A stretch of 64,000 bases of DNA from positions 1 to 64,000 of the forward strand of contig JYFJ02001298.1 in NCBI GenBank assembly GCA_000934665.2, read 5' to 3'. The notes below the pieces were generated by a model, which was given only the letters and a program-made list of their open reading frames with translations, was not told where the DNA came from and made no database searches. This document shows, in pieces, positions 1 to 39,500 of the stretch. The position numbers and the translations under genes are program-made. The DNA comes from Catajapyx aquilonaris (lineage: Eukaryota). Numbering within the stretch: the stretch's first letter is position 1; each line of letters starts with the position of its first letter.

Positions 1-329
1 GAGGGGGGGGTGGAAGGAGAGCTGGAAAAAAAAAAAAAGAACAGACGGAGAGTTCGTCGGCTTGAAAAGGTTCGGAAGGCGGCCACATGAGGCCAGGACT
101 GGCTGGAGGGATGCAGAGACATCTAGCGGGAGATTGGACGAACTGTTCCTCATCAGCATCTTTGCATCTGGAACTTGTTTTTGGATCTCATTAGCTATTA
201 ATATTAGGATTAGCAGCTGTGATTGGTTTGGCGAATAAGGCTCTATAACCAATAGGTCTGCATTTTAAGCTATAGTCTAGACCGGGTCTAGACCTTATTG
301 ATGGCTATAACTGGTTTAGTCAGGGTTTG

Positions 330-850
330 TTGCACTAACATGCTACTAGCATCTATAACTGGTTTGGTGCACCAACAGCCACTAACTAGTAGCAGCTATA
401 ACTGGTTTGGTGTACTAACAGCCACTAGCAGCTATAACTAGTTTGGTGTACTTTAACAGCTAGTAACAACTATTAGCAGCTATAACTGGTTTGGTGTACT
501 TAACAGCTACTAACAACTACTAGCAGCTATAACTAGTTTGGTGTACTAACAGCTACTAACAACTACTAGCAGCTATAACTGGTTTGGGGGTACTTAACAG
601 CTACTAAATACTACTAGCAGCTATAACTGGTTTCGGGTACTTAACAGCTACTAACAACTACTAGCAGCTATAACTGGTTTGGGGTACTTAACAGCTGCTA
701 ACAACTACTAGCAGCTATAACTGGTTTGGGGTACTAACAGCTGTAACTGGTTTGGCGCACTAACAGCTCAATGTTCAATGTACTAACAGCTATTAGCAGC
801 TATAGCTGGTTGGGTGTACTAACAGCTACTAGCAGCTATTAGTTTGTTAA
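330..850. repeat. Minisatellite with a variable unit of about 35-48 bp (core CTACTAGCAGCTATAACTGGTTTGGTGTACTTAACAG)
   Basis: About a dozen degenerate tandem copies of GCAGCTATAACTGGTTTGG..GTACT(T)AACAG can be read directly. Confidence 0.9.
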
Positions 851-1648
851 TGGCAGGTTGCAAATTGGGTGACTGAAAATAGGCGGATAATAAATGTAAC
901 TGTAGCAAGTACCACATGAACTTTAATGTCGATCGTTGGCTATAATAAATAATGTGACTTGCAATTGCACTGGACAATACCACAAGGTAAAATGGGGGCA
1001 TGTTTCATTGGGCCAACATGGCAAGAGAGGGTTACACGGTTATCGTTCCGAGAAGCTGCACGGAATGGTTACAAAAAAGTTGTTAACGGGTTTTAACAAA
1101 ATGGAGTTCTCACCCCTTACAGTTAACAGTAAATCACCATGTAAGTTCGGGAAGGGACAGGGCAACAATATACTGGGCAGGCGAAGTTACAGGGGTACAT
1201 TTAAGTATACAGAGACTTTGTTAAGTTATGCACCAACTTGTTGCCCTTGCTTCAATGGTCTAGTCTCGCCAAATTAGTATGATTGTTATTATCAAACTGA
1301 TCAAACTTGTTATTAGCCCGTCATGTAAGAATGACAATTACAATCAGCTCAGCAAGCATAATTCACTAGCAGTTCAGAATTAGCTGCATGAAAACGCCGC
1401 AGCTTATTACGTGACTTGTCCTGACCATCTTATTCGCTGAAGCATGGCGATAATCTTATGAACTTTCCGGTTGCTTCACCGTCGAGTTATGTCACCATGC
1501 GTCAGAAAATAAAATCCTGCAAAACCGTACCTTTCTGATGCTGCCATGTACCAATACTGAACACAGAAACAGATATTAAAAAATTGGAAGCGTGATGCCC
1601 CCGTACCATTTACCCACGTACATTTTTTTAAAAAACCCTGTGTGACAC

Positions 1649-3720
1649 TCATCTCAAGAGAAACTCCTTGTACTTGGACATCCCCTTGAGCTGCCTCCTC
1701 AGCTGCGAAACAAGATCTGCGGGCTGTAGCAGCACTGAAATGTCCCTCCCGACCGCACTCAGCCTATCCCTCACCTCTCCAGTCTTTGGAAACAAACATA
1801 GCGGCCTCCCATTGACCTCAGTTAAGGCCCACGGACAATGGGAGACTCCATCACAAGTCGGGGCCTGCGTGGGCAGCCCCGCCTCCGCAACAGGCCCACC
1901 AGGAACCACCTCCTTCACCACACTTGACTTCTCGCCATTGTTGCTTTCAAGCACTATTCCTAGTCCTCCACCAGATGAATGATCCCGCTTCAGCACCAGG
2001 ATTCGTCCGAACGGAACACGACGAACGACTAGCTCAACCCGAGCGGAATCATCCAAACGCAGGAGGCTTCGAGCTAGTGAGGCCGTGTGGACTGCCACAC
2101 CATCGACAGACGCCAGCTGGTCCCCTATGTGTAAGGCAGTGTACAGAACTGGATGCTGGCGCTGTTTCCATCCTGCAATCCTGAAAATAGTTGGGCACAT
2201 TAGGATCAAATAAGGATTGACGCAATAGACGAGCACAACATGCGACTCACCAGACAGTGTTGAGATAGTCAATCAGGGCGAGGGTCCCATTGCAGTCCTT
2301 TCGATGTAGTCTAAGTCTCACTCCTGCCGGATGCTGCATTTCACATCTGAGTCGGCTTGCCTGCATCTCTTTTAGCGAGAGTGGCGGAGGTGGCGGCGGC
2401 GGCGGCAGATTCTCTCCCTGTACTTCAATATCGTGATTTCCCTCAGGTGGCGACATGGGGGTTTCCTCCTGAGGGTAGAGTCGTTCGTAGGTCTGCTCTG
2501 AGTCGGTCAGTGTGTGAGAGAGGAGATCAAAATCGAACACATCTGGTGGGGGGTTGGAAGAGTTGTCCAGTGAAGGTGGTGGCGGCAGTGGAGAGTTGGG
2601 ATCGCGGCGAGTCGACACTCCTGATGGAGTAGTCGGTTGAGGAGCAGGCGGTGTCGGAGGAGGAAGGCGTCCGTACAAGTTGACTGCTGGAGACAGTATG
2701 CCCATGACTCGGAGGCGGCCGCGGATTACTTCGACCCATTCCTGCAAACAAGAAGAAGCTAGTTGCAAAAACAGATCTCCAAACGTCATGATTAGAAAAT
2801 GCCTCCTAATGTTAATGATATTTGTAACGTATGGAAATGTCAAGTAACCTGCGTCTCTTCCAAGGTTGCGTAGTCATCCATGGCAAGTGACAGAGTTGCA
2901 GGCTAATACATCACGCAGAATTCTCAAAAATGCGTAATTACCAAATCAGCATTCTTTAGGACAATGGGGACAATCAAAAACACTCTGCAACCTTATCATG
3001 CATTATCTTTACGAGAAAGGCTTCCACTAAGCAGCTTTTTGACTCAGCACTTGTCGGGTACTGTTTTGCTGTCATTTCATGGGTTTGAACATGTTGCTCT
3101 CATTAATATTTTAAGCGATAAATTCGTCTACAGATGCGATTCAACTAGGCCAGGCGACAGATCAGTAACTTTGGATTTTCTTACGGCAGGTAAGTTGCTC
3201 GTGTGACACTTAATTTTTTATATGCAGTATAAGGCACCACTGAATCTGGCCTCAAATTCTAACAAATGATTGTTTATATTTTGAAAAAAACTATTCCGCA
3301 TCGCACAGTTTGAATTGAAGGTACCAAGCTGATCCACACCTGCATCTCGGCTCTTGTGTCAGCCACCAAATGTATAACCTCCCTCTCAAGAGTGACTGCA
3401 AATCCGTGTCCTCCTTCAGGACCCGGATAAGGCAGAAGTCCTGGCGAAACATGCCTGCAGTTCTTAAGAGACAAGGGTCTTGCTGGACGGTGGCCAGAGG
3501 CTGCCCCTGGGTCGGCATACACTTCCAGGAAAGGGTTGGTGTCATCGTGAATACAAAACACCACCCACACACGCTCCGAGCACTTCTTGTTGCGTCCGGA
3601 TGATGTCGCCCGACGCAACCACGCACTCTTGTGGATCTCTCGTACTTGGAACCGGTTGTGCGGGTGCATCGGGATTGGTCCTGTTTCCATTCTGCCACAC
3701 CTATCACTTCCTGGAAACAT
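1649..3720 (-). CDS. Adaptor/scaffold protein: N-terminal PH domain, Pro-rich linker, C-terminal PDZ-like domains. Exons about 3720(or 3690)-3340, 2741-2251, 2180-1649
   Basis: The PH-like pattern IHKSAWLRR...RVWVVFC...FLEVY...LSLKNC...IHLVADTRAEMQ|EWVEVIR is joined across a GT-AG intron. PDZ-like segments are LHIGDQLASVDG and GLGIVLE...VKEVVPGGPVAEAGL. Splice phases are compatible. Confidence 0.75.
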
Positions 3721-4714
3721 TCAAAATCTAATTTTTTGGGGAGATAATCCGCACCCTGATAATTAGGCGTGCAGCATATTATATTTGTATGCAAATTTGC
3801 AATTTTATAGTATTCCACATCAGGTTACACCTTCAATTTTTAAGCTTACGGTTCCAATTATCTACGTACTATGCTAGTTACTAGTTGAAGCAACACATAA
3901 ACATCCGGTAGCTTTGTTGTTGTTGTTGTAATTAATTACTTTGCTGAAATGTAATGCCATTTTTTGAAATGCCCAATTTTTATTTCTGGCAACGCACCCC
4001 AACAGGCCTGCGGAGACGATGACGAGTTCCAGCGTGCCAGAGGGGATAGGGCGGCCCACAGCATCCAGGACAGGTTCACATCAGATCATGGCCCCACATC
4101 CTCTTCGGCCCACAGCCTTTTTGTCCTCTCTTCCCCTTTCACCTTCTCAAAAAAAAAATTATTCTATTTTCTGTTCAGTGCCATCAGTGGAGGACGCCAT
4201 TTTGAAAACAGGAAAGTTGAAGGGGGAAAAAAAAAAAGATGATACGTTCTAACTCTGCTCCCTCATGCGCATGCGGATCACTCAGCATTTTTTATTGGCC
4301 ATCAGTACTTAACTCTGGCTTCTTATTGGTTGGTGGCATGGTATATGAAGTCGGATTGCACATGTAAATTTCCGGATCGTATCCAATGAGGTGTTAGTTT
4401 CTCCACTGGTCGTCAGATGGCAGGTATTTCAAAAGCAGATGAGCATTTGTCGTGCACGCCATCAAGCGGGAAGATTAGAAAGTAGGAGTTCTGAAATGGA
4501 GGAAGTTGTTGTTGTTGTTTTTTTTAAAATAATGCTGCACGTACATTAAATCGGACCAAATTAATAAAATTACCTACAATTTATTTATTTTTTGGGGTTC
4601 GTACAGTACTGTCACTATGCCAAGGTACCTTATTCATGTAGGTTGAGCGCATGCGTAGTAACCCGAGAGCGGCAGTTCAAATCATTTTTGACTACTTATC
4701 CTTTAACTCATTGG

Positions 4715-4782
4715 AATTAGACTCCTCAGAACTCTATAGAACTCCTTAGAACTCCATAGAACTCCTTAGAACTCCTTAGAAT
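4715..4782. repeat. Short tandem repeat with a 10-bp unit (AGAACTCC[T/A]T), about 6 copies
   Basis: Directly visible in the sequence. Confidence 0.8.
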
Positions 4783-5133
4783 TGTTCTAAGACCGTGCTT
4801 GGAATACTGGAAATCGGTTGCTTCATCAACTGTGAAGGTAAACAGATAAGTGACAACAAAAACGTTGTCAGTGTCCAGCATGTTCAGTTAATTTAACTTA
4901 CGTTATGTCAATTACAGTTAGTACATGAAACCCTGTAAGTATAACACGATCCTGATTTTTTTAAAGTTCATGTATGTGTGAAAAAATGAAGCATAGACCA
5001 GCAAGTTGCTGTCAATGATGGAGAGAAAAAAAGTAATGTGGTTTATGTTACAATTCAGTAATGCAGATTACACAGTTTTAAATACGAATTTTGGATTTGA
5101 GGCCAACTGGTTTTTTTTAACGATTGGCTAATT

Positions 5134-6813
5134 CTACCAATCCATGTGAGGTGGGACTGCATTAATTCTGGGACTGTTTTCAGAGTAGAACTGGTTGAAC
5201 CACCGTCGGAATCGTCGGATGCTCTTTTCCTCCGCCACAATTAGAGGACGTGAGAGGAACTGCTTGGAGTTCCAGATCCTGATGTCTCTTTCCAGCATGA
5301 CAGACTCTGCCCAGAGGACAGTCTTGTACAGTGGAAGTAGAGGTCCGAAAGGCGCGTATATGTGATGCACCACACGCTGCAGAAGCGGCTCAACTGGAGT
5401 CACAGCCTGGAAAACAACCAAATTAATCAAAAAACAATAGTGGTCATGGTGGTGACATCGGTACCTGTATAATCCAGCATGTACCGAATGGCAGATGCAG
5501 GTTCATGAACACGAAGGACGGTCCCACTTGCATGATCTCGACGTCTACAAAGAAGAACTGGAAGCCAGCCACCTGGAAATGGTGTGTTATTTGGACGTAT
5601 GCCACATGCTTGTCCCTCTTGGTCATCAACTGTCCCTTCTCGTCGTCTTCTCCATCCAGTTGACCGTTGCTCTCTTCGTCGCCTGTGTGCCACTGACCTG
5701 TCCACACATGTTGACCCAACGAAAAAACGGCCGGCTCCGAATGTATCTGGTTGAAGTGACCAGTGTCCGCCCCATTTTCAGGCAGCTCCTGAATGTGGCA
5801 TCCGACCCAATGCTCAGTCCGTCCACTTTGCAACCATCGACCTGAGGTCACCTCTGGAGGAAATTGGGGAGCCCACTCTGACCCCGTGCCCTCAGCGTGG
5901 TACCAAACCAGGATCCAACCACCAGCCTCCATACTCTCCCATAGTCCAACCCTCGCCGTTTCAGCAGCTGGTAATCAAAATTGGTTTAAAAATTTTATTA
6001 CATTGACAACAATGTATACTATAACACGCAAAAAGATTGTCGCACTGTGTCCGCGACTTTTTGTTTACCCTCCTTGCCGCAAGGGGCGTTGCCAAATACC
6101 ATCACGTGCAGGCCAGCATGCTGGCAACGCCCCTTGCGGCAGGAAGGTAAACAAAAAGTCGCGGACACAGTGCGACAATCTTTTTGCGTGTTATAGTACC
6201 TTTGTTGGCATAAGGCACTTTGACGCATCGTCCGTCTTTCCCGCTGAATCGCCATCCGTGGAAAGGGCAGGTGATGCAATCTGATTCCTCCACTTTGCCT
6301 CCGACACCAATGTTGGCTCCCAGATGAGGGCAGTAGGCGTCCATCACACGTACTTCGCCTTCCCAATTGCGCCATACCACAAATTCTTGTCCTGAAAAAT
6401 CAGAAGACCATCGGATATGACCAAGTTTCATCAACACAGAATGATAGCGAGAAGCACATACCAATGGCCGATGAGGATTTGACCTGCCCAGGGGCGACCT
6501 GGTGAGATTCCAGAAGAGCAAACCATCCGTTTGGATAAGCTGGTGGTAAGTGTTGGTCCCTCAAAGGAGCCATCTTCTGCTTGATCTTGGCCCTGACCAG
6601 TTGCCTTTTGGACAGTCCCATTCGACTAGAGTCATCCTCTTTCACGTGATCCCAGCCCACTTGGGTCAAGGTTCGAGTCAGGTTCAAAGGTCGGTAGATC
6701 ACCCAAAGGAACCAGAGGCCAAGGGTTGCGACCATCAGAAGCAGGAGGAACCACTGCTGGATGCCAACCAGCGCCATCGCCACCAACCATACCCATGCCC
6801 ACCACCACCACAT
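5134..6813 (-). CDS. nvd: Neverland/DAF-36 Rieske oxygenase (cholesterol 7-desaturase). Exons 6813-6462, 6391-6200, 5967-5465, 5406-5134
   Basis: It has an N-terminal hydrophobic anchor, PPAYPNGWF, the Rieske motifs CPHLG and CPFHGW, the mononuclear iron motif ENGADTGHFNQIH, and C-terminal ERDIRIWNSK and FRRWFNQFYSENS. All introns are GT-AG with matching phases. Confidence 0.95.
6017..6198. mobile_element. MITE-like foldback element (arms of about 78 bp) flanked by TA, in nvd intron 2
   Basis: TA-CTATAACACGCAAAAAGATTGTCGCACTGTGTCCGCGAC... at 6017 is mirrored by its reverse complement ending ...GCGTGTTATAG-TA at 6198. TA on both sides fits a Tc1/mariner-type target-site duplication. Confidence 0.85.
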
Positions 6814-22014: not shown

Positions 22015-23271
22015 GACTCATCTCTCATCCCAACAGTATTACAAAGAAGTACCTTACTGGCACTGGTATTATGTTTTGAAATAAAAATAAAAGCATAATT
22101 TTATGTGCATGGAAAATGCCTTTTACCAAGGATGGGACGAATGACAAAATTTGCCCAAAACTCCTAATAACATTTGCCTTAAAAGTGAGCTTGTGACGTG
22201 TTACATGATTTCTTTGTTTCATGGTGTTAATTTATTTTTGACAGGTGTCCTAAACTTACCAAGTATTTATTTATTTATTTTCTTGTACCTTAAATAGCTT
22301 TTGAATTACAACATAAGTTATATACTTGATGATAATAATGACCGCATTGTTGATTTGTTTTTGCAAGACCTCTTACCATTTCATTGACTGGAGTGGAATT
22401 AGCTGGAATAAATTATTATGGAAATACAGTTTAAGATTGATCACAAAAATAATTTGCAGCAATCCGGCATATGTCAAATCACTACCAACCTAGTTGCCCA
22501 CTCGGAGAGAAAGGTTTTTCATAAACATTTTAACCGATTGTGTACATCAAATTGCATGCAGCAAACTAATGTTGCAGGCAGTATTGTGGATGGATGGACT
22601 GGAATTCAAATAGGATTTCCAATCTGTTTCTTCTTTCTTTATTTGGGCTCATTCCAAACAGAAATCCAATGGATATGTATAATGCAAGTACGGTACAACC
22701 AATAGCTATACACATGTTAACATTAGTTTCGGCTTTGAATCACATAGACGTTATTTACATTGACAGATTATGATGACAATTTCTTTAATTTTCTTGAATA
22801 CTTCAGTATTGTGCACCTGGAAATTACCGGATTTACAGTAGCACTTTTAATGCCCTAATAATATCTATGCAGAGTTAATCAAGTATTGTCGATTCATTAA
22901 TCTTCGAACGGTAACTCGGACAAATACATGCTTCACTACTAACTATAAGTGGTGCTTCAACTGTGATGTAAAGTATAATAATAATAAATCTGCTAGATGC
23001 CAAAGTAACAATATTTGAAGCTACCAGACATGAGGCAAGTGAGAGACACTTGCTGTAAGATTTCGAAGATAAAGTGAAAATAGTGTATATCACAGTAAGG
23101 CACTGATCGAGCCATGGACGAGTACTGGTGATGAGAACGTGTGTTGAGCTATTAATATATGTTGTACTGTATATTCTACCAGGGATTATCCACCGGTGCC
23201 AGGTGCACGTTGCGTTCGCTGTAAAAAAATAATCAGCCATTAATAATTATTGCAGCTATAAATAATGCGTA

Positions 23272-26200
23272 TTAAGTATAGTCGACTGACCGAACAAACT
23301 GCGTGCCGAAGTTGGTCTTTTCCAGGAAAGGATTGTTGGACGGCTGCATTAGCGCCCCTTTTCCTCCATCTCCGTTCATGTCGTTTTCCTTATTCTGCAT
23401 TCCTGGCTTCTTATCTCCCATACGGTACTTGTACAGGCAGTACTCCACGACCAGGGTGACGATCCCTATCCCGATCCCGAAGAAGATCATCATGAACACG
23501 CCTCCAATATTGGGCAGGCTGATACCATCGGACAGGTTGGGATCCCTGGGACACTTCTTCCTGTTCTTGTTCTTGGTCCACCACCACTTCTTCAGGTAGT
23601 CGAAGTGTTTGCTCTTATGCATCTGCACGATACTGAAACGCAGGAAGTAACCATTGGTCAGTAGAAAATGTGTATGTTCAGCAGGTATGTGTCTTTAAGT
23701 GTACTTACGCGTCTGAGAGGATTCCCTTCAAAGGCGAACCCTTCTGCACTGCCAGAGCATAAGGTCTCATCGAAAACCCACCTCCAACTCTCATCAGATC
23801 GCAATTGGTGAGAGTGGCATAGTCGATCACTGTTTCTTCGTCTACACACAAAAAAAAAATTATGTATGGGTCAGCTCAGCTAGATTCATACAAGTCAGCA
23901 ATAAACACATACCAAGCAGAGCAAATCCTTCGCCGTGCAGTGTCGAGTTTCGGATCTTCTCAATGGCAGTGTCGTAGTCTGGTTGCAGCTTGGTCTCCTT
24001 CATGGCCTGCCACATCTTTGTGTACCGATCGCTGATGGGGTAGTCCCAGACGGCCAGCTTGGACCGCTCTACTTCACCCAGGCTGTCGTTCAGGCTCATG
24101 TCCTTCCATATCCTGCACAAAGTAGTTTTGTCAACCAGATCTTCAAGTTATAAAAGGACCTGTACGTACTCATAGAAGCTGTTCTCGATGTCGGCCATCC
24201 TCTCGAAGTACTTGTGGCCGACTGTCTCCAGGATGGGAGAGTACTGAGTCTTGTACTGTCGGCTCAGGTCCTCCAGGTTCTCGATCGGATGTTCCAAACG
24301 GGACACTGTCAGAAAGGCGGCCAGGTTGGCTGTGTATGAGGCGATGATGATGAATCCGAAGAGCCACCAGGTTGCGGCCACCAGTCTTCCGGAGAGATTC
24401 TTTGGGGCTTCTCCTCCTCCTTGAGGGGTCAGAGAGGTCATGCAGAACCACAGGCACTCCTTCAGGTCGAAGATTCGCTTCTCGTCGTCATCGTGGAACT
24501 TGTCGATGTTGTTCTGGTAGCTGTATGGGCTCCATCGGTCGAACACCCAGAGAAGGACGCTGGTGAAGAAGTAGGCCCCAACAATGCAGAACCACACGTC
24601 CGTCTCCAGCACGGTCAAGAACTTGAAGAGTGTGGTGATCGGAGGGATCCTCTTCATCAGGATGGTGATCCCAACCAGGCCGTAGTAAGGCTCGGTGAAG
24701 TCGATGGCCTGTTCCCGCTCGGCCATGACGGACATGGCTCCCAAAGCAATGTCTGCCTCCAGGTCCAGAAGAGCCTTCACCATACCGGACCACTCCTTCG
24801 TCTCCTTGTTCTTGAAGCCGTAGTTGTCCACTTCCTTCGTGATCTCATAGTCGAAGCCAGGGACCAGCCGTTTGATCTGATCCATCATGTCGATGCAGTA
24901 TCCGGAGAAATCGCCTCTCCAGTTCTTCTGGACGAATGGAGGTTGCTGGAATGGGAAGGCATTGTATCAATAGATAGGTTGCCATATTCGGTCTCCCAAT
25001 ATGAAAGTCTTTCCGAATAAAAGTAGACCTCCCGATCTTACCACCACAACGACGACTTTGTACTTGGTTGTCTGCGTGTTGTGCATGTTTCCGATGCCTC
25101 CGGACAGAACGAGCTTCTCAGGTACGATCCAGGAGCCGATGTCCGAGGTCGACCCTGTACCTCCGGCGTAAGATAGAGACCTCAGTTTGATGGAGAATTC
25201 CATCCAGCTTTTTCCGTTCGTGTCCAACTTCAACTGGGAGATCAGAGGCGTCTCCGAACTCTACAGATAGAGACTAATTTTATTGCAATTCTGTTGTATC
25301 AGACCATGATCCACAACGAACCGTTTTGAGACTCCATCGCAGCTGCACATCAGGCTCGAACACGTGGGAGTCCTCCTTGTACTGCGCAATGGTGCTGTAG
25401 TTGCGAGCAGGCCACTTGTTCCTCTTCATCAGGTTGCTGAAATTATTATTTCAATTATTAATAGGCATTGTTGTGGTATCGAACAGACTTACTTGACAGT
25501 CCGCAGCGTTTGGACAGCTAGCTCGAAGTAGAATGCATATTCCACCTGAGGCGCCTCGCTCAATCCGAAATCTGCTGGGGTTTGACCCTTGACCACAGTG
25601 CTCATGTCAGGGAACAGCTGAATGATGGTGGCCCCATCGCAATCACAAACAGGGATGAACTCCTCAGTTCCGATGATGAACCACCGGTACATCCTTGGGT
25701 TGAACAGCTCCAACACCCTCGCCCGATCGAACACCTGCTCGATGGTTTCCTTCGTTCCAATCACAAATAGATTGCGATAGTTGTCCTTCTGGAAATCCCT
25801 CAGGTTCGTGTCCAGCTCATCCTTGGTCTCGGAGTTGTACTCGTATATCTTGAACCTGGCGTTGGTGTTGCGGAACAAATCCTTCTTGCGATGTCTCATT
25901 CCTAGAAATAAAGTACAAGGTGTTACATCGATCTATACTAACTGATGTATATGGTATACTAACGGATGGAGTTGTCGTACACAACTCCGACGTCAGTCAA
26001 GTTTGCTTCTCGAACAAGTGACCTCATGGCCTCAGGGATGTATTGCCCTGGTGGGCTGACCTGTACCAGATACTCTTCGGCCTTCAGACTAAGGTATCCC
26101 CATGCACTGAGCTCTCCGTACGAACCAGTCACGGTTGGAATGGCAAGTGTGTGGGTGATGCCTTTCGTCGCCTGCGACGCCAACCCGGTCATTGTCATGT

Positions 26201-26762
26201 CCAGCACAATATTAGGCTGGGCCTCTGCTTTGACCGCGCTGTCAATCTTCACGCACACTGTTTTGAGAAGTCTTATAAGCAACCATGCCATTAGTTGGTG
26301 CACAGTACTTGTTACACTTACGGTCTTCCACCATGGTTGAAGGCGACATGCTGACGTCTGCATACACCTTTTGCACCTCTCCTATCTCTCCTTCATCTGG
26401 GTGACTTTTGAAATACTCGACAGCAGCGTCGATGGCCTTCTCTGGGACTGGGGTGTCGCTTTCTCCCAGATACACTGTCAGAAATTATAGTTTCTTACAA
26501 AAAAATGCCAGGCACAACACCTGAGCATATAATAGGTCGCTTTCTTATAAATAATTGAGTGCTCCAGATGCGATAACATAAGGTCCGTTCTGCCATGTTT
26601 CAGCATCAAAAAATCAATTTTTCTAACTACGTAAAGTGCACGAAAGATGTCAATTTGATAAAAAAAGAGGTATTGCTTACGGATGTTGACGGCTCCATCT
26701 GACTTCCTGAGGATCAAAGTGGCCCCCAAGAGGCCCAGTAATAGAGCTGTGCAAGAGCCCAT
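23272..26762 (-). CDS. Divergent IR25a paralogue (ionotropic co-receptor with ATD). 10 exons: 26762-26681, 26474-26322, 26257-25964, 25901-25493, 25436-25322, 25260-25042, 24945-24170, 24112-23913, 23841-23709, 23632-23272
   Basis: It has a signal peptide and ATD. IR25a-type segments are WSPYSYQNN, WFCMTSLTPQGGGEAPKNLSGRLVAATWW, SYTANLAAFLT and the extra loop WKDMSLNDSL...LAVWDYPISD. Confidence 0.88.
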
Positions 26763-28970
26763 GATGGACTCGACAGCCCCTGCTGAGGGGCACTCAAATC
26801 TGAAAGATAAATGTGATCAAACATTTAACACCATTATCTTCTTAAAAAATGATCCACCTGTGATGCAAATAATGCAAGGTACGCCACCTGCTTTTAGAAA
26901 TAGGCCTCCCGACGCCTATTGCCCCCAGAAGCTATTATGGCGGTTCCGAGTAATCGACAGCAGGCCAAAGCAGTGGTGCTCTTAAACTCAGCGCCGACGC
27001 CATTGGGTACAGAATAATGGATGAGGACACCCAAGGACATATTGAGCGCCCACACTCCGTGTATACATACTCGCCGACGTCTAATTCTCACCACGAAGCC
27101 TGACAGAGGCCTGTGGCTAACATTATTCCCTGCTCTTGCACTTCAACCCACCAAATTCTATAATGTTTCGAATTTTGCATAATAGTTGTTGTTCGCATAG
27201 GGTGTTAGGGGTGCATGAGACTGATACAAGAAATTGCTTTGGTTCCTTTCCTAGTACTCTTACTAAGATTTAGGGATTTTTAAAATTTGGGTTCATTCAT
27301 GACTTATAGGTTATAGCACTATCTCCAGTTCCAAAGCTCTATGTATACATGTACTGACAAACAGATCATGATGCAAGCTGAGAATTAGCCTATTCTCTAA
27401 TAAGTATACATCATCTTCCTCCCAGTTCAAGAGTGATTCAACTACTTGTATACCACTGGATAAAGTTCTCTCTCAATACCTAAGATTGAATCTAAAGTAG
27501 TGTGTGAGGTGGCCAAAGGTAATAATTATTATAAAATATAAAATAGTATAATGTAAAATAATCTAAAATTCTTCCGGAGGAAAGCTATAGTAGTCGAAAC
27601 TGTTCACTGTTGGCAAATTCTCACCTAGGCCAGGCTACGTGCTGATTTTCCACTTGTCATGCATCAAAAATTATTGCATCTACTTTGCGAATCTTTCGGC
27701 AGAATAAGCCAGAGCGCCTACTTTCCTTGCAAAATATGACACGCTATGAGGATGATTATAATCAGTAATTATTATCTCACTTCTTGCTGTCACAAAACAT
27801 CTGAAAAATATTCTTATCTGTTTAATGTTGAGGATGGTAGGAATGCAATAATTCGCTTGTAGCAAAACCTTTTTGCTGGCCCATAGCATTCCACATAATT
27901 ATAGAGCAAAATTAGTCTGTAAGTTTGGTCATTGTTACGGTACAATATGACCTATAGGTCCCAATGTCAATTAGTAGTAATTAATTTCATTGCCATCGTT
28001 AGATTCGTCATCGCACTATGCCCAACAATGGCAGTTATTTTCATGGAGAATAAAGTGTCGTCGTGAACACTGAAGTAATGTTAGTTATGCTGATTTTGAA
28101 CTTACCTTCCCCACCGGCTGATGTGACTCGAAAGCAACCTGAGTGATGCAGAGAACACCTAAGAGGAACTGGTGTAAAATAATCGCCGATCACGTGCCCC
28201 TCTCTGAACCCAATAAGGTTTCTGCAAGTGGCCTTCTCCATCCGCCAATCGTCACACGTGCTACAATCGCAAGGGTCAATTTCTGGGAAGGGCCTCTTTG
28301 GCCAGGGTAGGTAGGTAGGTGGCAATGGGAGGCCAGCTGTAGGCCTACCTGAAATGGGCCTCATCCAACCATATGTTATAGGCCTGCTAAATAATTATCT
28401 GAAAAGGAAAATAATCATGCCGCAAAAGTCTCAAGGTCGATAGAATTTCACAATTAACTTTATTATACCGTCTTTTTTTAAAGTTTGAATGTACATAAAT
28501 GTCAATCCAGAATTCGCATGGGGGTTTTTATTTACATCAAGTTATCTCTTAAGCCACGTTGAGGTAACAAAAATAAACGGGAGCACCTTCATACTGTATT
28601 GCTAAAGAATGTCGGACGGTAGATTATCATCACTTAGCTCAATAAGGTGGGGTGTTTTTTTCTTCTTCATATATTTTTGTAAATAGTGGGGGTGAACATA
28701 AACGTTGAGTGAAACCATTTTCGATTAATCCTCCGGATATTCGGCATTCCTTTTTTGTACCAAATAAAAAACCTCACCATTTGATAAGTGCTGATATTAT
28801 TCTAGACACTATAAGGGACAAAATAAAATGGACGGACAATGGTGTCGAAACCAAACAATAATAATCCTCGGTGCGATTACCAAGGGTTGTCCACCGGAGC
28901 CAGGTTGACTCCTTGGCTGGGCCTGAATCAAAAGAAATGGAATGCGTTACAACATGCCAATTCAAAGGAA

Positions 28971-31900
28971 TTAATGGACAACCCACTTGTTGTATTGTGT
29001 GTTGAAGTTGGTCTTTTCCATCTGACCAAAAGCTGCAATGGCGTTGTCGTCGAATCCAGGAGTTGGTGCATCAGCTTCTCCTCCAATCTTGCCTCCAGCC
29101 AGCCTGTGCTTGTAGTACCAGTACTCGAAAGCCAAGGTGATGCAGGCCAATCCGATTCCGACGAAGATCACGATAAACACACCACCTGAAGTGGTCGATT
29201 ATACGTAAGAATCCAGTCCAAAAAAGTGTCTGAAGAACCTATAAGCAGGCTACTTACCAATATTCTGGATGCTGATACCGTCAGACTGTCCAGAGTCCTT
29301 GTCGCACTTGAGCTTCTTGGGGTTCTGATTCCACCATCTTTCCTTCAGCGTCTCGAGTTTCCTCTGATTCAGAAGCTTCAGGATGCTACGAACCAATAGA
29401 AAATGAAGCTTAAACATAGTGGGGAAAAATAATAATCAATTACATGCTTTGTGCAAAGTACGATGGTGCTGTTACATGCGATTACACTAGCAGGAACTCT
29501 ACGATTTATTTAATTGTCCTGCACTTACGCCCCATCCAGCTGGCTCCTGAGTGGAGAACCTTTCTGAACCCCAAGGGCGTACGACTTCTGTGCGACTTCG
29601 TCTCCAATCATCTGCACATCACATTCGGTCATCTCTGCATACCGGATTTCGGATGCATCGCCTGTGCGCAATTTCATACATGCACAGTGCACTCACTGGT
29701 ATCAATTACGACAAAGTTTTTCAGTGTGTTTGTGGACATTCACATTTTTTTTTTGATTTTCATGCTTGTGGAATCAGGTGTATCATAGTGTGGAAAATTG
29801 AATGTTTCATGCGTTTTTGCTGTGTTTGTGCGGCTGAAGAACAATGAAACTCACGCCTCTGAGAATTGATCTTTGAGAGGAGATCCCTTCTGAACGCCAA
29901 CAGCAAAAGGCTTTCGAGAAAACTCCTCTCCGACCTGGACCAGGTCACATGAAGTCATGACTGTGTACTTGATCTCAGTTGCCTCGCCTGGAACCCAACG
30001 CCCAGAGTGTTATTGTCATGACAAACAAACAAAAAAGAGTGGTCGTACTGTCAGTTATGAGTGATGAACATAATAATTATGTAAACTTTAAAAAAAAATC
30101 CACTTGAAACAGGCCCAGCACCATATGATTTTTAATAAACTTAATTGGTCAATTCCTTTGATATGAGTAAAACCAACACTCAAATTATTCAGGCAACTAA
30201 AATTTTTAAATATTTAATTAAAATAGTGAGTGATATTTCAAGTGTAGAAGTACCCATTCAAAAATAATTAAGGCAGTAAAATAGCATCTGAAATAATGTT
30301 CAAATCTGGCATAAATATAAAGTCATGAAACTTCATCCAATCAATACAGTACAAGTATATCCAAAGTAAACGTTTTGTGTTGCAACGAGTCTAATAAAAT
30401 TGCTCCGATATCGATTGAACAATCAATAAAGTAGTCAAAAATATATGCCGTCAGCACTCTGATGATTGTCCACGTCGTATATCTCTGGAACAAACGCTTA
30501 TGGATTTAACTCATTGCATCCAGGTCTGTTAAAAGAAATTAATGGGGAGTGATTTTTTTTTAAAAAAAAGCTTCTCTCTCACCTAAGAAGGCAAACCCTT
30601 CTGAGGATGACTTTGACTTTCGGACACGGACAAGGGCATCTGAAAATGTCTCCGGCAGCTTTGTCTCCTTCATGGCCTGCCACATCTTGGTGAACTTGTC
30701 ACTCACTGGGTAGTCCCAGACAGCCAGCTTGGCTCTCTGGAGCTCATCCAAGCTGTCGTTCAGGCTCATGTCCTTCCAAATCCTGTCAAATAAACAGAGT
30801 TGTTGACCTTTGCGTCAAATTATTACCTCTCAACCAAACTTACTCGTAGAACTTGTGCTCGATGTAGGCCATTCTCTCAAAGTATGTTGAGCTGGAGGTT
30901 CCGTTCATTGGAGCATACTGGATCTTGTACTGCTTGGACAGATCGTCCAGTGACTCGATGGGGGCGTCCAATCGGGACACTGTCAAGAAGGCGGCCAAGT
31001 TAGCTGTGTATGAAGCGATGATGATGAATCCAAAGAGCCACCAGGTAGCGGCCACCAGTCTTCCTGACACGTTCTTCGGGGCTTCTCCTCCTCCTTGAGG
31101 GGTCAGAGAGGTCATGCAGAACCACAAGGATTCCTTCAGGGTGAACTCTCGCTTCTCATCGTCATCCTTGTACTTCTCCTTATTGTTCTGGTAGCTGTAT
31201 GGGCTAAACCGGTCGAATATCCACAGCAGCAGGCTGAAAAGAATCATTGTTAAGGCATTGTTGGGCAATATTCTGAAATGATGTTTATATGTATAATGTG
31301 CTTACCTTGTGAAAAAGTAGGCAGCCAAGATGCAGAGCCACACATCAGTCTCGAGCACAGTCAAGAACTTGAAGAGTGATGTTGGAACAGATGGTTTCTT
31401 CATCAGGATGCTAATTCCGACCAAATCGTAGTAAGGCACTGTGAAGTCGATCACATTCTCTCTCTCAGCCATCACAGATAGGGCTCCCAGGGCAATGTCA
31501 GCTCTCTGCGATCATTACAATACCAATTAACCAAAAGCTACCAATTTAGCTAATGAAAGTATTAGTGACTTCCAACAAACCTTGTCCACAAGCTCTCGAA
31601 TCATGCCGTTCCATTGCTTGTTGTCGTCCATGGCTCCATATCGTTTGTCGTCAACTTCGCGGATCTCGTAGTCGAAAGGAATGATCTTCCTGATTTCCTC
31701 CAGCAACTGAATGCAGTATCCTTCGTAGCACTTTTCTCCAACACAATCCTCAATCTTCTCCACAAATGGTGGTTGCTGAGAAAAAAGCGAGATCACAAAA
31801 TGAAAAACTATTGCAAGTTTGTTCCCAAACGCCTTTTTTATTTCCAGCCTTTATACACATGGAAGCTTGGGACATTTTATGTACACAGTTTGGAATTTAT

Positions 31901-34900
31901 ATATTATTACAAAATATTGAGCTTTATTTTTTTTGGCATTTAGTTAATGAGCAAAAGAGTTAAGGCCCCAGCAACAACTGGCTGGACAAATTAGTGGTAA
32001 ATACGGAACTTACCACGACAGTGACCACGCGGTAGACAATGTCGGCGACATGATCTGTCAGGTCCCTTCCGGCGTCGAACTGGAGCTCGCCCATGGGCCA
32101 ACCGCCCTTCCATGTCCCGACCTTGTTCTTGGTTGCGGTCTGTCCGTTCACGATGTGGTACTTGTCAAGTTGCATTTGAAAGTTCATCCAGCTCAAACCG
32201 TTTGTCTCGATCGTCAAGGGTCCGTAAGTTGGTGTCAACGAGTCCTGCGATACACACAATACAAAGTTGGAATATCACTACAATATTCTAATCCTTCCCA
32301 TTAACTTAGCCTAATTGATAGTTGGGAGATCCAGGAGAACCCGCTCGAAAAATGCAAAAAATTAACGGTTCATTTCATAAATGTATGATAAGTTTCCTAC
32401 AAATGTTTACTAAAATCTCCTTCATTTGCCTTTGTTGAGTTCAGCATGGTTAAACCTGAGACTTTCATCCGGCTAAATGCTTTTTAGTTGAAGGTTTCTT
32501 TCAGAGTTTCAGTGAGATTCTTGCAAAACCTCACCTACTGTGTGGTTAGTCTGATTATAATGTTAAAACTTATTCACAGTTACAAAATGTACGCCATTTC
32601 AGTGTGTTCAGCTAAGCGGTGGTTGTGCAAGAGTTTCATGGAAATCATTACCCTGTCAAATGCTTTAAATGTTCTTTTGATACGAGTAAAATGGTCGTTG
32701 ATAAAAATTTAAATAGCAAAGTCTTGTGCGTCACATTTGATTGCAGACAGGACCTCATACCACGAGTCCAACCGAGAAATTGTCATCGATTTGGAACCCT
32801 TGGAGGGTTCGCCCCCTTGAATTATAGACAGTCCGGCAAAATAGGTCTGGGCCGCGGAGGAATGGACCTTTTTCTCTTTTGTAACACGTACCGCTTTCAA
32901 AGCCGACTTGAACAGGACTTGAGGCTTCAGTGGAGGGTCATCCTTGTTGTACACCTCGCAGGTAATTGCCTCGCGGGTCGGAATCCACGTGCCCTTCTCC
33001 ACCATTTCTCTGAAAAAGTAAAACAGGAAGATGCACATACTTACAAGGTTCCTCTCTCAAAATGAATAAAACAGCATATCAAGCCAACAAAGGGGAACAC
33101 ATCATGACGATAAATTGATACGAATCTGCATATGTAGACCGCATACAATGTACACAATAGTATATACTATTGTGTACATTATGATTCTGAGGCATGTCAT
33201 ATATTATGTAATACTATATCCGGCTATACTGTGTACTGCGCTTATGCCCGGTATTGGCAAGTCAAGTTATTGCTGACATCTTAGGCCAAATTAAATAGCT
33301 AGGTGTCAAATATATTGAACATAACGTGCTGTGTGTCTCCAATGTGTCAGAGTGGACATACAATATTTTTTTTGTTCCTGTCATTCAAATTCATGCTAAT
33401 TATTATATCAGTGGATGAACCAAAATGTCATTTTGTCTCCTTTTTACATCGGTGTATAGTTTTTCTCTCATGTAATTGTCAACTTTTTTGGCAAGGTCTT
33501 TTTGGCATTGTTTCAGAACATGTATAGAGAGACTAACCCGACGGTCTTGATGCTGCGGACAGCCAAGTCGAAGTAGAAGGCGGCGTCAATGGCTGGCTTG
33601 TCCTTGAGGCCGTAGGTGTCAGACAGCTGAGTCAGCATGGATCCTTCCTGCTCCGGGACTGGAAACAGGTGAACCACACTCGAATTGGAGCATTCCTTGC
33701 AGGCAATATCACCACGTTCCTGCCAAACAATAAAGGATCCAAAAAAATAATTAGAGTGTGTTTCACATCATGATGTGAAGAGGTCTTACCTTGCTGATGG
33801 TGTACCAGGCGTACTTTCGGTTGAACAGTCCCTTCCTGTGAGCAGCATTCAGAACTTTCACGATGCTATTGGGCTTGGCGATGACGAAGAAGTTGAAGAT
33901 GTCCACGTGGACCAGCCTGTCCAACTGCTTCTCCACATCCGCATCAGTAGGGTCGATCACATGGATGATGTGTCTGGTTGGCATGTTCTGCAGCAGCGAC
34001 TTGTACTTGTGGTCCATCTCTGTACACATATAAACAGACGGTACAGTAGACTGCAACAGTCATACCTGCAATATGTGACAAACCGAATGAATCGTCGAAA
34101 AGGACTGCAGCACTGGTGATGTTCTGCTGTCCCACAATGGCTCTGATGGCCTGAATGACAATGTCACCAGGAGGCATGATCTGTATCAGGTACTCGAGTT
34201 CATCTGTGCTCAGGTCCATCCACTCGCGAAGGTCGTACTCTTCGCCATAGGACGCGCTGATGGTAGGTATGGTCAGCGCCCTGGAGATGGCCTTGACCAC
34301 CTCAGAAGGCAATCCGGACAAGGTCGTGTCCATGATGATATGAGGAGGGTTCTCACTCTTCAAGGCGGCGTCCAGCTGGTTGCAAACTGTCCAACAAATC
34401 GGAAGAATCAGACAACAATGCTTGCGGACAACGTCGTTCAGGACTTACCATTTTCGACCATGTTTTCTGCGCCTGTACCGTTGACGTTGACGAAGTTGAT
34501 CTCGCCTACTTGTCCGACTGTAGGGTTTCGTTCGAAGTATCGTCGGGCGGCTCTAAGTGCTTTCTCGGCCATTGCATTGCGTTGTTCATTCACAAAGACT
34601 GTAAAAGTACACGTACCGAATATAGTAAGCAGCGCGTAAGGAGCTTTGGCTGGAAACAAAAGTTCGCGAACAAAGTAAACACTTGTTTACACAAGTCCAG
34701 TATTGGATAAATGCATTAATATTGCGGATTATTCCCGCACTTGCAATGACACGTAATGCTTACCGTGTGCACAGTCGCATTAGACCACGTGATTGACACT
34801 ACATGTTGCGACAATCCCAAAGAGCTATTTGGACAATCCTAAAGAGTCAATAATTATTTTTCTGACAGCCACTTTTACATCCCCATTTTGTGGCCAACTA

Positions 34901-35301
34901 ATGATTTTAATAAGTCCATAAATGTTATTACACACAAGAAAAATATCGACGCGACGAAACTAAAAAATATTCCACGCACAAGTCTGTTTGTTCTGCTTTC
35001 TTGTTTTCAGTCGCTTTGCAAATATCCGCAATTGAGGCTACGTGACGTGTTTTAATAATTTAAATACTAAAAATGAAGTCAGCAACAACTAGTGTAAACA
35101 TAATCTAATTATTTGACGACACTAGCTATGCCAGCAAGTTAGATGTTTTTACATTATTCTGCAGCCAAGTCTCGTTACTTCAATTTATTTATTAAAAAAA
35201 TCAGTGTACTTACAGACGTTGACAGGTGCTGCTTGTAGCGATGGTCTTGGAGCCACAGCCAGCACCATGAGCACACAGCATAATGGCGCCAAAGCGCCCA
35301 T
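28971..35301 (-). CDS. Ir25a: Ionotropic receptor co-receptor IR25a. Exons 35301-35214, 34598-34449, 34386-34084, 34019-33790, 33719-33538, 33009-32892, 32244-32014, 31775-31581, 31505-31306, 31233-30844, 30782-30583, [29987-29855 OR 29661-29529], 29385-29258, 29185-28971
   Basis: Motifs include MDHKYKSLLQNMPTRH, MAERENVIDFTVPYYDLVGISILM, KDDDEKREF, WKDMSLNDSL..LAVWDYPVSDKFTKMWQAM, GEEFSRKP, ILKLLNQRKLETLKERWW and GISIQNIGGVFIVIF. All junctions are GT-AG and phase-consistent. The exact C-terminus is uncertain. Confidence 0.95.
29529..29661 (-). CDS. Ir25a: IR25a alternative exon 12B (133 bp): GDASEIRYAEMTECDVQMIGDEVAQKSYALGVQKGSPLRSQLDGA
   Basis: Acceptor gcacag, donor GC|gtaagt, same length and phases as 12A, no stop codons, 23/45 residues identical to 12A by hand alignment. 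Confidence 0.85.
29855..29987 (-). CDS. Ir25a: IR25a alternative exon 12A (133 bp): GEATEIKYTVMTSCDLVQVGEEFSRKPFAVGVQKGSPLKDQFSEA
   Basis: Acceptor ttccag, donor GC|gtgag, phase 1 in and phase 2 out, no stop codons. Confidence 0.9.
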
Positions 35302-36517: not shown

Positions 36518-39500
36518 TTATTCAAGGAAAGGATAAGGAGCTTTTTTGCGAAATGATAAGGCTACAATGCGACGTGCAGCTTTTTCCCTTCGCTTCCGCC
36601 AAACTTCCATTCCATACATGAGGGCAGCCAAGCACAATCCTGAAAAACAGTGTTAGAGCGACATGCTGTGACAATTTATGTCCATTACAATAATAATCTC
36701 GAATAAACCACATGAAGGTCACCTAGAAGTAGGAGACAAAAAGTTCCGGCCAGATCCTCCAGCCCCACAGATTTGGCTCCGGAGGTGTTGGCTCTTTTGC
36801 TCCTGGCAGCTGCTTCGACATAGCAAGTTCTCTTCGCAGGCCAAGTCTCGCTCTTCCATTTGGCTACTAAACCACTGCGAACAAGCTGGATCAATCTATT
36901 ATTTAAAAATAAATAACAATTACAGAGGCACCGACGATGAAAGTGCATTTCAACGACACTGGTATGCTATCGGTCATGTCCAGCAGTGGCATAAAAATCA
37001 ACTCACACCTATCTTGTGCAAAATCTCCAAAATGTTACTGTCTATATTGATGGAATACATTATTAAGAGCGTATATGTTTACATAATATTATTTAGAAAA
37101 CTTTTCCACAAAATTTTGGCAACCGAAGCTCTCTTAACTCGGCTACAAAAATGTAAATAATTAAGGGGATTTATGACAAAAGTTGTCTTCACTTTACGAA
37201 AAACGTTTCAGCTCATGGAAACTTGAATTTGTTTTCATATCATATCATTTTGATAGTCAAGTACTCTGCGGAAAAAGTATTCAGAGGGGGCCCTCTGAGT
37301 ATGTTATCGACGACGTTTCTCTACCTTGCAAATATTCTTATCAATACCGACATGTCTTCTAGTTAGGCTACATATTATTTCTTTCATTCATAATGCACTC
37401 TCTGCGTGGGTTCAAGGCTTCTTCCAACCCATTCTGCCCATTGTACCCCTTCGAAGCCCTCAACTCAACCTCAACTACTATATCGACTTGTTCTTTCTAT
37501 AGTTGCTCTATAGTCTTAAAATCCAGTATACATTTCACTTACTCTGAGTTAAATCTGGAAAGATGAGGACTGTCCTTGGGAACAGCCAACGCCACTTGCT
37601 CCTCCAGAAAATCGTACGGACCTTCGAAAACAAGATCCATTAAAATACATGATCAGTTCTGATCGTCGACAATGCGTATACTACATACCAGCTAACCGGA
37701 CGTTACATAAGACAGAATCTGCTAGGAATCCCCGAAAGCGCTCCCTTGAATCCATAACGACCATCTTCTCGTCTCTGATCATCTCCAGGGTCTTGAGCAT
37801 GTCTTCCTCTCCGTGGTCCAGCACCACAGCTTCCTGGATGGAGGTCGGGTACATCTCGAGTCCCGACCTGTTCACAAATGGCGAGGACCTCAACAGGCCC
37901 AGTGGCGGATAAGTGTACGAGATGCTGAAGACGGACTGCTGAGTTCCTGGCATGGACAGAAGGTGTTTCATCAGACCAGAGTCAAGGCTGGCTGGTTTCC
38001 TCTGGCTCAGCAAAGCAACCAGTGACCCTGAATACAGGGTCGTGGTCACCAATGTGGTTGCCCACCAGGCACCGGCTACGCATCGGGCTGCACCTCCTGG
38101 TGAACGAACCGTGGCTCCTCCTGAAAAAAGTGTGTCGGATATAAACAACAAAATATTCTTCTGGAAGAACATAATACAGTACCTTGTTGCAAGGCAGCTC
38201 CCATGACATACCAGCAGCAAAGAAAAAAGCTCGAAAGAGATGGATCTCCTGGTTTTATGGCTGGTATCACTCTCATTGAGAACAGGTACAGAATAGGTCC
38301 CACGAGAGCTACTGCTGCTAGTATGGCAAGCCATGCCTGGCCAAATAAAATGAGATGATCATTTGGAGCTGATTGGAACAGAATATCCTTACCAGAGTGG
38401 AGTAAGGCTGCAGGAAGAGCAGAAGGCGTCCCAAGTGTCCAGGTGCCTTGACCAAAAAGGCGTATCTCCTGGAGGCGAACACTGTGGTGAAATCTAGGAT
38501 GGTGCTGGAATTGTCGTTGTACACTGGAAAAGCAACTGCAGCAAGAGACACCTCGTTTCTCTGCAGTTGACCCAAAACTCCGGTCCAGACACCATCAGAG
38601 TCCTCATAGCCCCAGAGGCTACCATCTTCAGGTACCATCACTTCATAGCTAAAATGTTTATGACGCATTGTGAGTAGCCGTTATCCTAACAGTTCAGAGC
38701 TAACCATGCGACTCGCATGTTCGCAGCTCAGTCTGCCTTACAGGATAAAGATAAATTCCGTCTTTCAGAAGTAAAAGAAAAATACTGTCAGACACTTACC
38801 TGAAATTCATTCTAACAGATAGTTCATCCAAGATGCGGAAGACTAACCCAGATGAGTAGATGACACGACCGAATTCGTCCACTTCTACAATCTGCCAAGG
38901 AGGAAACTACAGCAGAATGTTAGATAATAATTAGAATGTCAGCAATATTCTTACATGAAAAGATCCGACTTTGAGTACCCGACCCCTCATTCCCCCTTGA
39001 ACATTTGGAAAAGTCTGGTCTCGCATCCTCGTTCCGGTCATGGGTGACCACCATCCGGCTACCAGAAGGTCAGGGTTCCCTCCTTCGATGGTCCTGAATG
39101 TCCAGCGGTCACAGGTGACCTCGATTGACTCCAGGGCATCCTTAGTGGCTGTGATGATGTCCGCACTGTGCTGGGCCCAGGAAGGACGCACCTGGTCCCA
39201 TTCATCCTCAGGGAATTCATTCCAGAGGTTCAGCTCCTCGTTCACAGTCTTCTCCAGGCCTTTGGTCACTGCTTCAATTAGTGTCCTGGAATGTGACTTG
39301 ACCTGTTCCTCCAACTTCGATTGGGTCGAACAAACCCTATCTGCCGACCCATCTCTTTCGGGATCCTTCTGCAGAAAGCAAACGTTATCGCCGTCATGGA
39401 GAAGTTGAACCAGGCGACTTTCAGCGTCTGGGTCGTCTCCCAGGACTATGAACCACTGGTAAGAAGGTCCTAAGAATCCGTGTAGCCTTGCCTGCAACAA

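Follow-up and report, generated by a model that had tools for sequence, protein, structure and literature searches.

IR25a of Catajapyx aquilonaris contains a putative ancient pair of mutually exclusive exons in its ligand-binding domain

In the IR25a gene carried by a 64,000-nucleotide stretch of the Catajapyx aquilonaris genome (contig JYFJ02001298.1 of assembly GCA_000934665.2, positions 1 to 64,000; the whole stretch is hereafter the window), two neighbouring exons of equal length and phase, 12A and 12B, encode alternative versions of one 45-residue segment of the ligand-binding domain (LBD). Their exclusivity is enforced at the protein level by a frame rule, in that only transcripts with exactly one of the two encode the complete receptor. 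The two exons appear to be a real and ancient mutually exclusive pair, and they probably represent this genome's copy of an old, conserved mutually exclusive exon pair of IR25a.

Anatomy of the exon pair and of the IR25a gene

The preliminary description of this stretch had placed two 133-nt exons 193 nt apart, and all their positions were reproduced on the minus strand (Table 1). Each exon is preceded by AG and followed by GT, within GTGAGT at 12A and GTAAGT at 12B, while the donor of exon 11 lies after 30583 and the acceptor of exon 13 before 29385; the described phases (1 in, 2 out) and the absence of stops were likewise borne out, the coding frame being the only stop-free one in either exon. 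The two are identical at 23 of 45 residues when split codons are counted, the same number as previously reported, with the cysteine kept in 12B, and at 81 of 133 bases. By codon position, 30, 34, and 19 of 45 are identical, which is the pattern of coding sequence. Given that 133 is not a multiple of three, including both exons or neither shifts the frame, as had been proposed, and leads to a premature stop: joining 12A to 12B leads to a stop at codon 821, 13 codons into 12B, and omitting both leads to one at codon 765. Owing to these stops, the full 930-aa receptor can come only from transcripts with exactly one exon 12; double-inclusion and skipped transcripts would be cleared by nonsense-mediated decay.

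The possibility that the reading frame of 12B is a chance open frame within an intron was considered and ruled out. Nothing else than the absence of 12B from known proteins speaks for it, whereas the related Logan protein P0002 matches 12B at E = 4.3e-10 in a tblastn search of the 64-kb window, the length and phases of 12B are exactly those of 12A, and the identities are distributed over the codon positions as given above. A chance origin is thus hardly conceivable.

The exon model of the gene is protein-guided, with P0002 as the guide, and is identical to this protein at 869 of 930 aligned positions. P0002, 928 aa in length, carries the 12A-type segment and is encoded without interruption in a 2958-nt Logan contig, so that it presumably derives from a transcript. 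In two database searches, the best named matches of the gene are IR25a proteins of malacostracans and insects, the best 120 matches are all IR25a or unnamed, and P0002 alone exceeds a full-length identity of about 60%. The gene is 58% identical to Penaeus IR25a, compared with 46% for a tandem paralogue in the window (see below). In a tree of IR25a sequences rooted with mites as the outgroup, from which IR8a and kainate receptors were left out, P0002 takes a separate branch amid barnacles, copepod-like sequences, insects, and malacostracans. The assignment of the gene to IR25a in the preliminary description is supported by the best matches, the identity to Penaeus IR25a, and the position in the tree. 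Judged from these comparisons, the gene is a complete IR25a of a pancrustacean-like lineage, which must be poorly sampled because it has its own branch in the tree and no close full-length match except P0002.

The predicted protein of 930 aa is collinear with P0002 and has the architecture of ionotropic glutamate receptors (iGluRs), comprising an amino-terminal domain, a two-lobed LBD, and a pore region; the precomputed domains of P0002 are PF01094, PF10613, PF00060, and PF00497. P0002 was aligned to GluK2 over residues 351-699 and 744-874, and the part in between (700-743), where GluK2 has about 15 residues, fits an insertion. An extra loop in the LBD is typical of the co-receptors among ionotropic receptors (IRs). 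The gene is very compact, with 9 of its 14 introns measuring 61-75 nt; the larger introns range from 238 to 647 nt and include the two that flank the alternative exons. The stretch from 12A to exon 13 is 469 nt in length and contains 12B.

Table 1. Coordinates of the IR25a gene, its exon-12 region, and the corresponding exons of metagenome locus L003
Feature	Sequence	Position	Strand	Length	Details
IR25a coding region	window	28877..35301	-		15 coding exons; 930 aa with either exon 12; P0002-guided model
Exon 11	window	30583..30782	-	200 nt	ends ...EGFAFL plus one base of a Gly codon; donor GTGAGA
Intron between exons 11 and 12A	window	29988..30582	-	595 nt	
Exon 12A	window	29855..29987	-	133 nt	5' alternative; phase 1 in, 2 out; form found in the related transcript P0002
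Intron between exons 12A and 12B	window	29662..29854	-	193 nt	
Exon 12B	window	29529..29661	-	133 nt	3' alternative; phases as 12A; open frame; donor GTAAGT
Intron between exons 12B and 13	window	29386..29528	-	143 nt	
Exon 13	window	29258..29385	-	128 nt	starts with the last base of an Ala codon, then ILKLLNQRKLETLKERWW
Exon 11	L003	ends at 746			
Type 2-like exon	L003	921-1053		133 nt	AG/GT; phases as its partner
Type 1 exon	L003	1539-1671		133 nt	AG/GT; same phases
Exon 13	L003	starts at 2015			

Counterparts of the pair in other arthropods

Among the IR25a proteins fetched from databases, two versions of the exon-12 segment can be distinguished, the canonical type 1 (GDATDIRY...CDLQ.VGEEFSRKPYA.AVQQGSPLKDQFN.A) and the non-canonical type 2, which typically follows the pattern G[DE]AT[EQN]...TSCD...VG[DE]EFSRKP[FY]A.AV[TQ]KGSPLKDQ[LM]S[GE]A. 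Six species have equal-length RefSeq isoform pairs that differ at 13-18 positions, all of which fall within this segment, namely Penaeus chinensis, P. japonicus, P. vannamei, Panulirus ornatus, Macrobrachium nipponense, and the barnacle Pollicipes pollicipes. Both types are also modelled in Scylla paramamosain and Petrolisthes cinctipes, and both forms are present in at least nine crustacean species. Single records fall on either side: the sole RefSeq model of the stomatopod Oratosquilla and the GenBank IR25a of Amphibalanus improvisus (QCO69762.1) are type 2, and the cDNA-derived lobster proteins of Panulirus argus (AGJ51188) and Homarus (Q95VU2) are type 1. QCO69762.1 probably corresponds to the antennule-transcriptome sequence of PMC6497305. 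Together with the equal-length RefSeq pairs, QCO69762.1 and the lobster proteins point indirectly to transcripts with one or the other exon in these species. Panulirus ornatus and three Penaeus species (P0005, P0007, P0137, and P0141) share one and the same type 2 peptide, which points to strong constraint; their canonical exons differ at a few positions. In insects, 16 isoforms from five species all have the same type 1 segment, and among the 179 segments examined in all, none from an insect is of type 2, a result based on annotated proteins rather than insect genomes.

These crustacean pairs resemble the window pair in that the same gene has two equally long versions of the same 45-residue segment, one canonical and one non-canonical. 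They differ from it in being automatic models, both versions of which keep FSRKP and which diverge at 13-18 positions; the window exons show 22 differences, and the 3' exon is without FSRKP.

The preliminary description had proposed searching related genomes with the exon peptides, and for 12A this was rewarding: a metagenome scan with the frame around 12A recovered a tandem pair at locus L003, where two 133-nt exons stand between exons 11 and 13 (Table 1). The IR25a exons of L003 are closest to those of the springtail Allacma fusca, with 72% identity as opposed to 64% or less for the others (nine comparators). The contig in question (1-5672) carries the 3' half of IR25a twice, in mirror image, at 1-2321 and at 5672-3184 on opposite strands; the two loci, L002 and L003, are identical in sequence, and the mirror image is probably an assembly palindrome. 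A stretch of another contig from the same metagenome, L001 (1248-1661), is IR25a-like with 39% identity to P0002 and has its equivalents of exons 11 and 12 continuous, without an intron. In the barnacle Amphibalanus amphitrite, the ab initio model P0087 joins the two types at about residues 700-790, the type 2 exon being truncated; it is a mis-model, yet it reveals the order of the exons in a barnacle genome. Type 2 lies 5' of type 1 both in L003 and in P0087. Thus, the architecture is common to malacostracans, barnacles, a hexapod-like genome, and the window lineage.

By position, our best guess is that 12A is the counterpart of the type 2 exon and 12B that of the type 1 exon. In 12A, E in column 2, S in column 13, and SE in columns 42-43 speak for this match, as do D in column 2 and QM in columns 17-18 of 12B; the 12B residues K (column 34), L (column 41), and G (column 43) speak against it. 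In the exon tree, the type 1 clade (23 rows) has a support of 94/96 and both window exons stand outside it, 12B on the longest branch (0.95) beside the Macrobrachium type 2 exon. Approximately unbiased (AU) tests, which had 45 columns only to work with, reject none of four groupings, in which either 12B or 12A was placed within type 1 (p = 0.48 and 0.42, respectively), all type 2 exons were united with both window exons (p = 0.41), or 12A and 12B formed a clade (p = 0.117), and in this respect the assignment of exon types weighs against regarding the window pair as a copy of the conserved one. The preliminary description had treated 12A as the canonical exon. This holds for its residues, since 12A keeps GEEFSRKP and 21 of the 22 near-invariant columns, but not for its placement, which is outside the canonical clade and in the 5' position that is non-canonical in both L003 and P0087. 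It may be that 12B, the positional counterpart of the canonical exon, has strongly diverged here and that the 5' exon has taken over as the conserved form.

Alternatively, the pair might have arisen by a separate tandem duplication in the window lineage and have come to resemble the other pairs by convergence. Unlike most homologues, 12A and 12B both have Gly in column 31 and Lys in column 34 (within GVQKG), and such an origin would also agree with the position of both window exons outside the canonical clade and with the survival of the 12A and 12B clade in the AU test. However, this clade is the worst of the four groupings, with a likelihood loss of 7.1 log-likelihood units, and the pair matches that of L003 exactly in length, phases, and position. 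Moreover, E in the 5' exon and D in the 3' exon at column 2, as well as QM at columns 17-18 of 12B, follow the other species, and the saturated synonymous sites (see below) indicate an old duplication. A separate duplication is therefore considered improbable, and descent from the shared pair is preferred. A more far-reaching scenario can be put forward only tentatively, and we regard it as unlikely to hold in full: the pair would predate the pancrustacean split, crustaceans and springtail-like hexapods would make two forms of IR25a, insects, to which functional studies are so far known to be confined, would have lost one of them, and in the window lineage the roles would have been swapped, with 12B remodelled and given a new hinge motif for a distinct job.

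Divergence and probable use of exon 12B

Between 12A and 12B, synonymous sites are saturated (proportion of synonymous differences, pS, 0.797) and the corresponding nonsynonymous proportion (pN) is 0.288, showing that the duplication is old and that both copies were long kept under constraint at the protein level. It seems reasonably likely that 12B is used productively in this species. The changes in 12B had been described as mostly conservative, which is correct with regard to the kind of replacement, as most of the substitutions that hit conserved columns are mild (T>S, V>I, F>V, S>A, R>Q, P>S, A>G, K>R, and D>S) and 12B retains the Cys, Tyr, Lys, and GSPL positions; with 9 of 22 near-invariant columns changed, however, the exon is more diverged than that description implied.

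A considerable number of observations weigh against productive use, and also against the pair being a conserved one in this genome. Whereas 12A keeps 21 of the 22 near-invariant columns, 12B keeps 13, and its changes, which affect 9 of the 22 near-invariant and 12 of the 23 variable columns, do not spare conserved positions, as relaxed constraint would predict. At seven columns, the residue of 12B is seen in none of 100 distinct homologous segments; four of its changes fall in FSRKP, fixed in all 100 of them, so that 12B reads EVAQKS where others have EFSRKP. The branch of 12B is the longest in the exon tree. Relatives of the exon are also missing from the collections searched. Among the proteins of 77-2000 aa of a 5.8-billion collection, a word-indexed search for 12B-like proteins gave 2 candidates, neither with E <= 1, and a HMMER search of 1.84 billion representatives gave 94 matches with E <= 0.001, none of which is identical to 12B at more than 27 of 45 residues, so that no 12B orthologue is known from them. 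The cluster of P0002 at 90% has a single member, in the 12A form, and thus there is no 12B isoform of that relative on record. Metagenomes scanned with a 55-aa frame around 12B returned 402 pattern matches, none of which was confirmed. The search that had been proposed for 12B therefore failed where that for 12A succeeded, as neither the metagenomes nor the protein collections held a close orthologue. A search of sequencing runs with exon 12B gave no RNA run.

Much of this would be explained if 12B were a relic, that is, one half of a once-working pair of which only 12A is now in use, while 12B is skipped or included in unproductive transcripts and drifts. The loss of near-invariant columns, the seven unique residues with four in an otherwise fixed motif, the long branch, the lack of proteins with a 12B-like segment, and the single-member cluster of a related transcript with 12A are all in keeping with it, as is the polypyrimidine tract of 12B, the weakest in the gene, with pyrimidines at 7 of 17 positions in comparison with 8-15 at the other acceptors. 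On the other hand, the frame of 12B is open, its donor is of the consensus type and scores 7.8 versus 3.7 for that of 12A, and its acceptor is no worse than that of 12A (1.9 versus 1.6), the remaining splice sites of the gene scoring from -3.0 to 12.2. Most replacements are conservative, and the Cys, Tyr, Lys, and GSPL positions persist. Furthermore, the exons retain 51% protein identity in spite of saturated synonymous sites, and a long neutral phase would have erased this identity; the loss of function of 12B would consequently have to be recent. Taking both sides together, a relic is a real but somewhat doubtful alternative.

If 12B is indeed used, the main isoform would be expected to come from 12A, and the 12B isoform would be minor or restricted to certain cell types. 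The choice between the exons would then be regulated, because both alternatives have weak acceptors. As to how such a choice might be steered, RNA pairing between introns was examined as a candidate. Inverted repeats in the window are short or of low complexity only, the best being one of 27 nt with 74% identity (29707-29733 with 30021-30047) that would loop out 12A, and the duplex energies among the three introns were reached by 40/60, 41/60, and 8/60 mononucleotide shuffles, respectively. Both results count against a choice steered by such pairing, and intronic pairing was dismissed as evidence, with nothing beyond the shuffled controls.

Ligand-binding domain, known exon pairs, and neighbouring genes

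Exon 12 aligns without gaps to residues 737-781 of GluK2 (numbering of entry 8f0o) and covers a stretch of the S2 part of the LBD that extends from the acidic residue aligned with E738, past the S2 cysteine, to where the last helical part begins. The cysteine of exon 12 pairs with the conserved S2 cysteine. Residue 2 of the exon, which is E in 12A and D in 12B, pairs with GluK2 E738, the acidic residue that contacts the amino group of the agonist. The preliminary description had identified this contact residue and its E/D difference, and the alignment agrees; across species, however, E and D do not cleanly separate the exon types. From the alignment and what is generally known of these receptors, the isoforms would be set apart by the acidic residue of the pocket, the part following the cysteine, the strand returning to lobe 1, and the initial turn of the next helix. 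Such differences could alter domain closure or the packing of subunits, and the altered hinge motif of 12B, together with its neighbouring surface, might change the domain movement of the co-receptor or its packing against partner subunits. Any effect of the swap on gating or partner choice is conjecture.

A known parallel is the flip/flop module of AMPA receptors, a cassette of 38 residues after the R/G editing site that covers the last two helices of the LBD and starts a few residues before the end of the segment matching IR25a exon 12. The earlier placement of the exon just upstream of flip/flop is fair, as the segment corresponding to GluK2 737-781 is mostly upstream and overlaps with the first few flip/flop residues only. 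In both systems (GluA1-4 in the case of AMPA receptors), which belong to one receptor superfamily, a single gene yields two forms through homologous exons that exclude each other and encode a portion of S2 in the LBD. In contrast to flip/flop, the IR25a exon encodes 45 rather than 38 residues and does not lie after the R/G site, the duplications are not homologous, and an effect on desensitization is only conjectural for IR25a. The IR25a pair is best seen as a mutually exclusive exon pair in the LBD of an iGluR-family protein that would work like flip/flop with a different cassette. Arthropod ion-channel genes such as Rdl, para, and those of nicotinic receptor subunits likewise have equally sized homologous exons in tandem, by which a functional segment of the channel is exchanged; these belong to other gene families, and in several of them the choice is steered by intronic RNA pairing.

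No other IR co-receptor is as widely expressed or as conserved as IR25a, and models of smell, taste, temperature, and humidity sensing, which are derived from insects, treat it as one unvarying subunit. If two versions of its LBD are regularly made by crustaceans, barnacles, and springtail-like hexapods, co-receptor identity would become a variable in chemosensory codes; transcriptome surveys that report one IR25a would have merged two proteins, and antibodies and probes may detect one form only. The apparent loss in insects would offer a natural comparison, and the pair would stand beside AMPA flip/flop as a second, independent case of exon swapping that retunes the clamshell domain of an iGluR-type protein.

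Both forms are already modelled by RefSeq in several crustaceans, and the pair itself has apparently not been described in print. A full-text search for a paper describing it found none in a library whose scope leaves out about 1.7 million PubMed Central articles and most subscription journals. Two large decapod chemoreceptor surveys contain no word beginning with 'splic', and splicing of IR25a goes unmentioned in the parts covered of PMC6497305, PMC7067487, PMC6150509, PMC10390513, and PMC11939437. One precedent is a supplementary note on the copepod Eurytemora affinis (Robertson 2017, PMC5714493, File S1), which mentions 'an alternative for exon 29' of IR25a. Compared by description only, it is similar in being an alternative version of an IR25a exon, but it comprises three exons and lengthens the protein by two residues. 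The statement in the preliminary description that the pair was not known to be described thus stands as regards dedicated papers, but has to be tempered by the RefSeq models and the copepod note.

The window also contains relatives of the gene. A second full-length IR25a-like gene with tiny introns (23179-26472, minus strand) lies in tandem about 2.4 kb downstream. This paralogue has a single equivalent of exon 12 (23854-23708), without room for a second copy; stops occur in the translation of its stretch where short introns are read through. Upstream of IR25a, at 37978-38351 (minus strand), the pore region of P0002 finds weak iGluR-like matches by tblastn (E 0.015), which may mark another receptor gene or a fragment of one.

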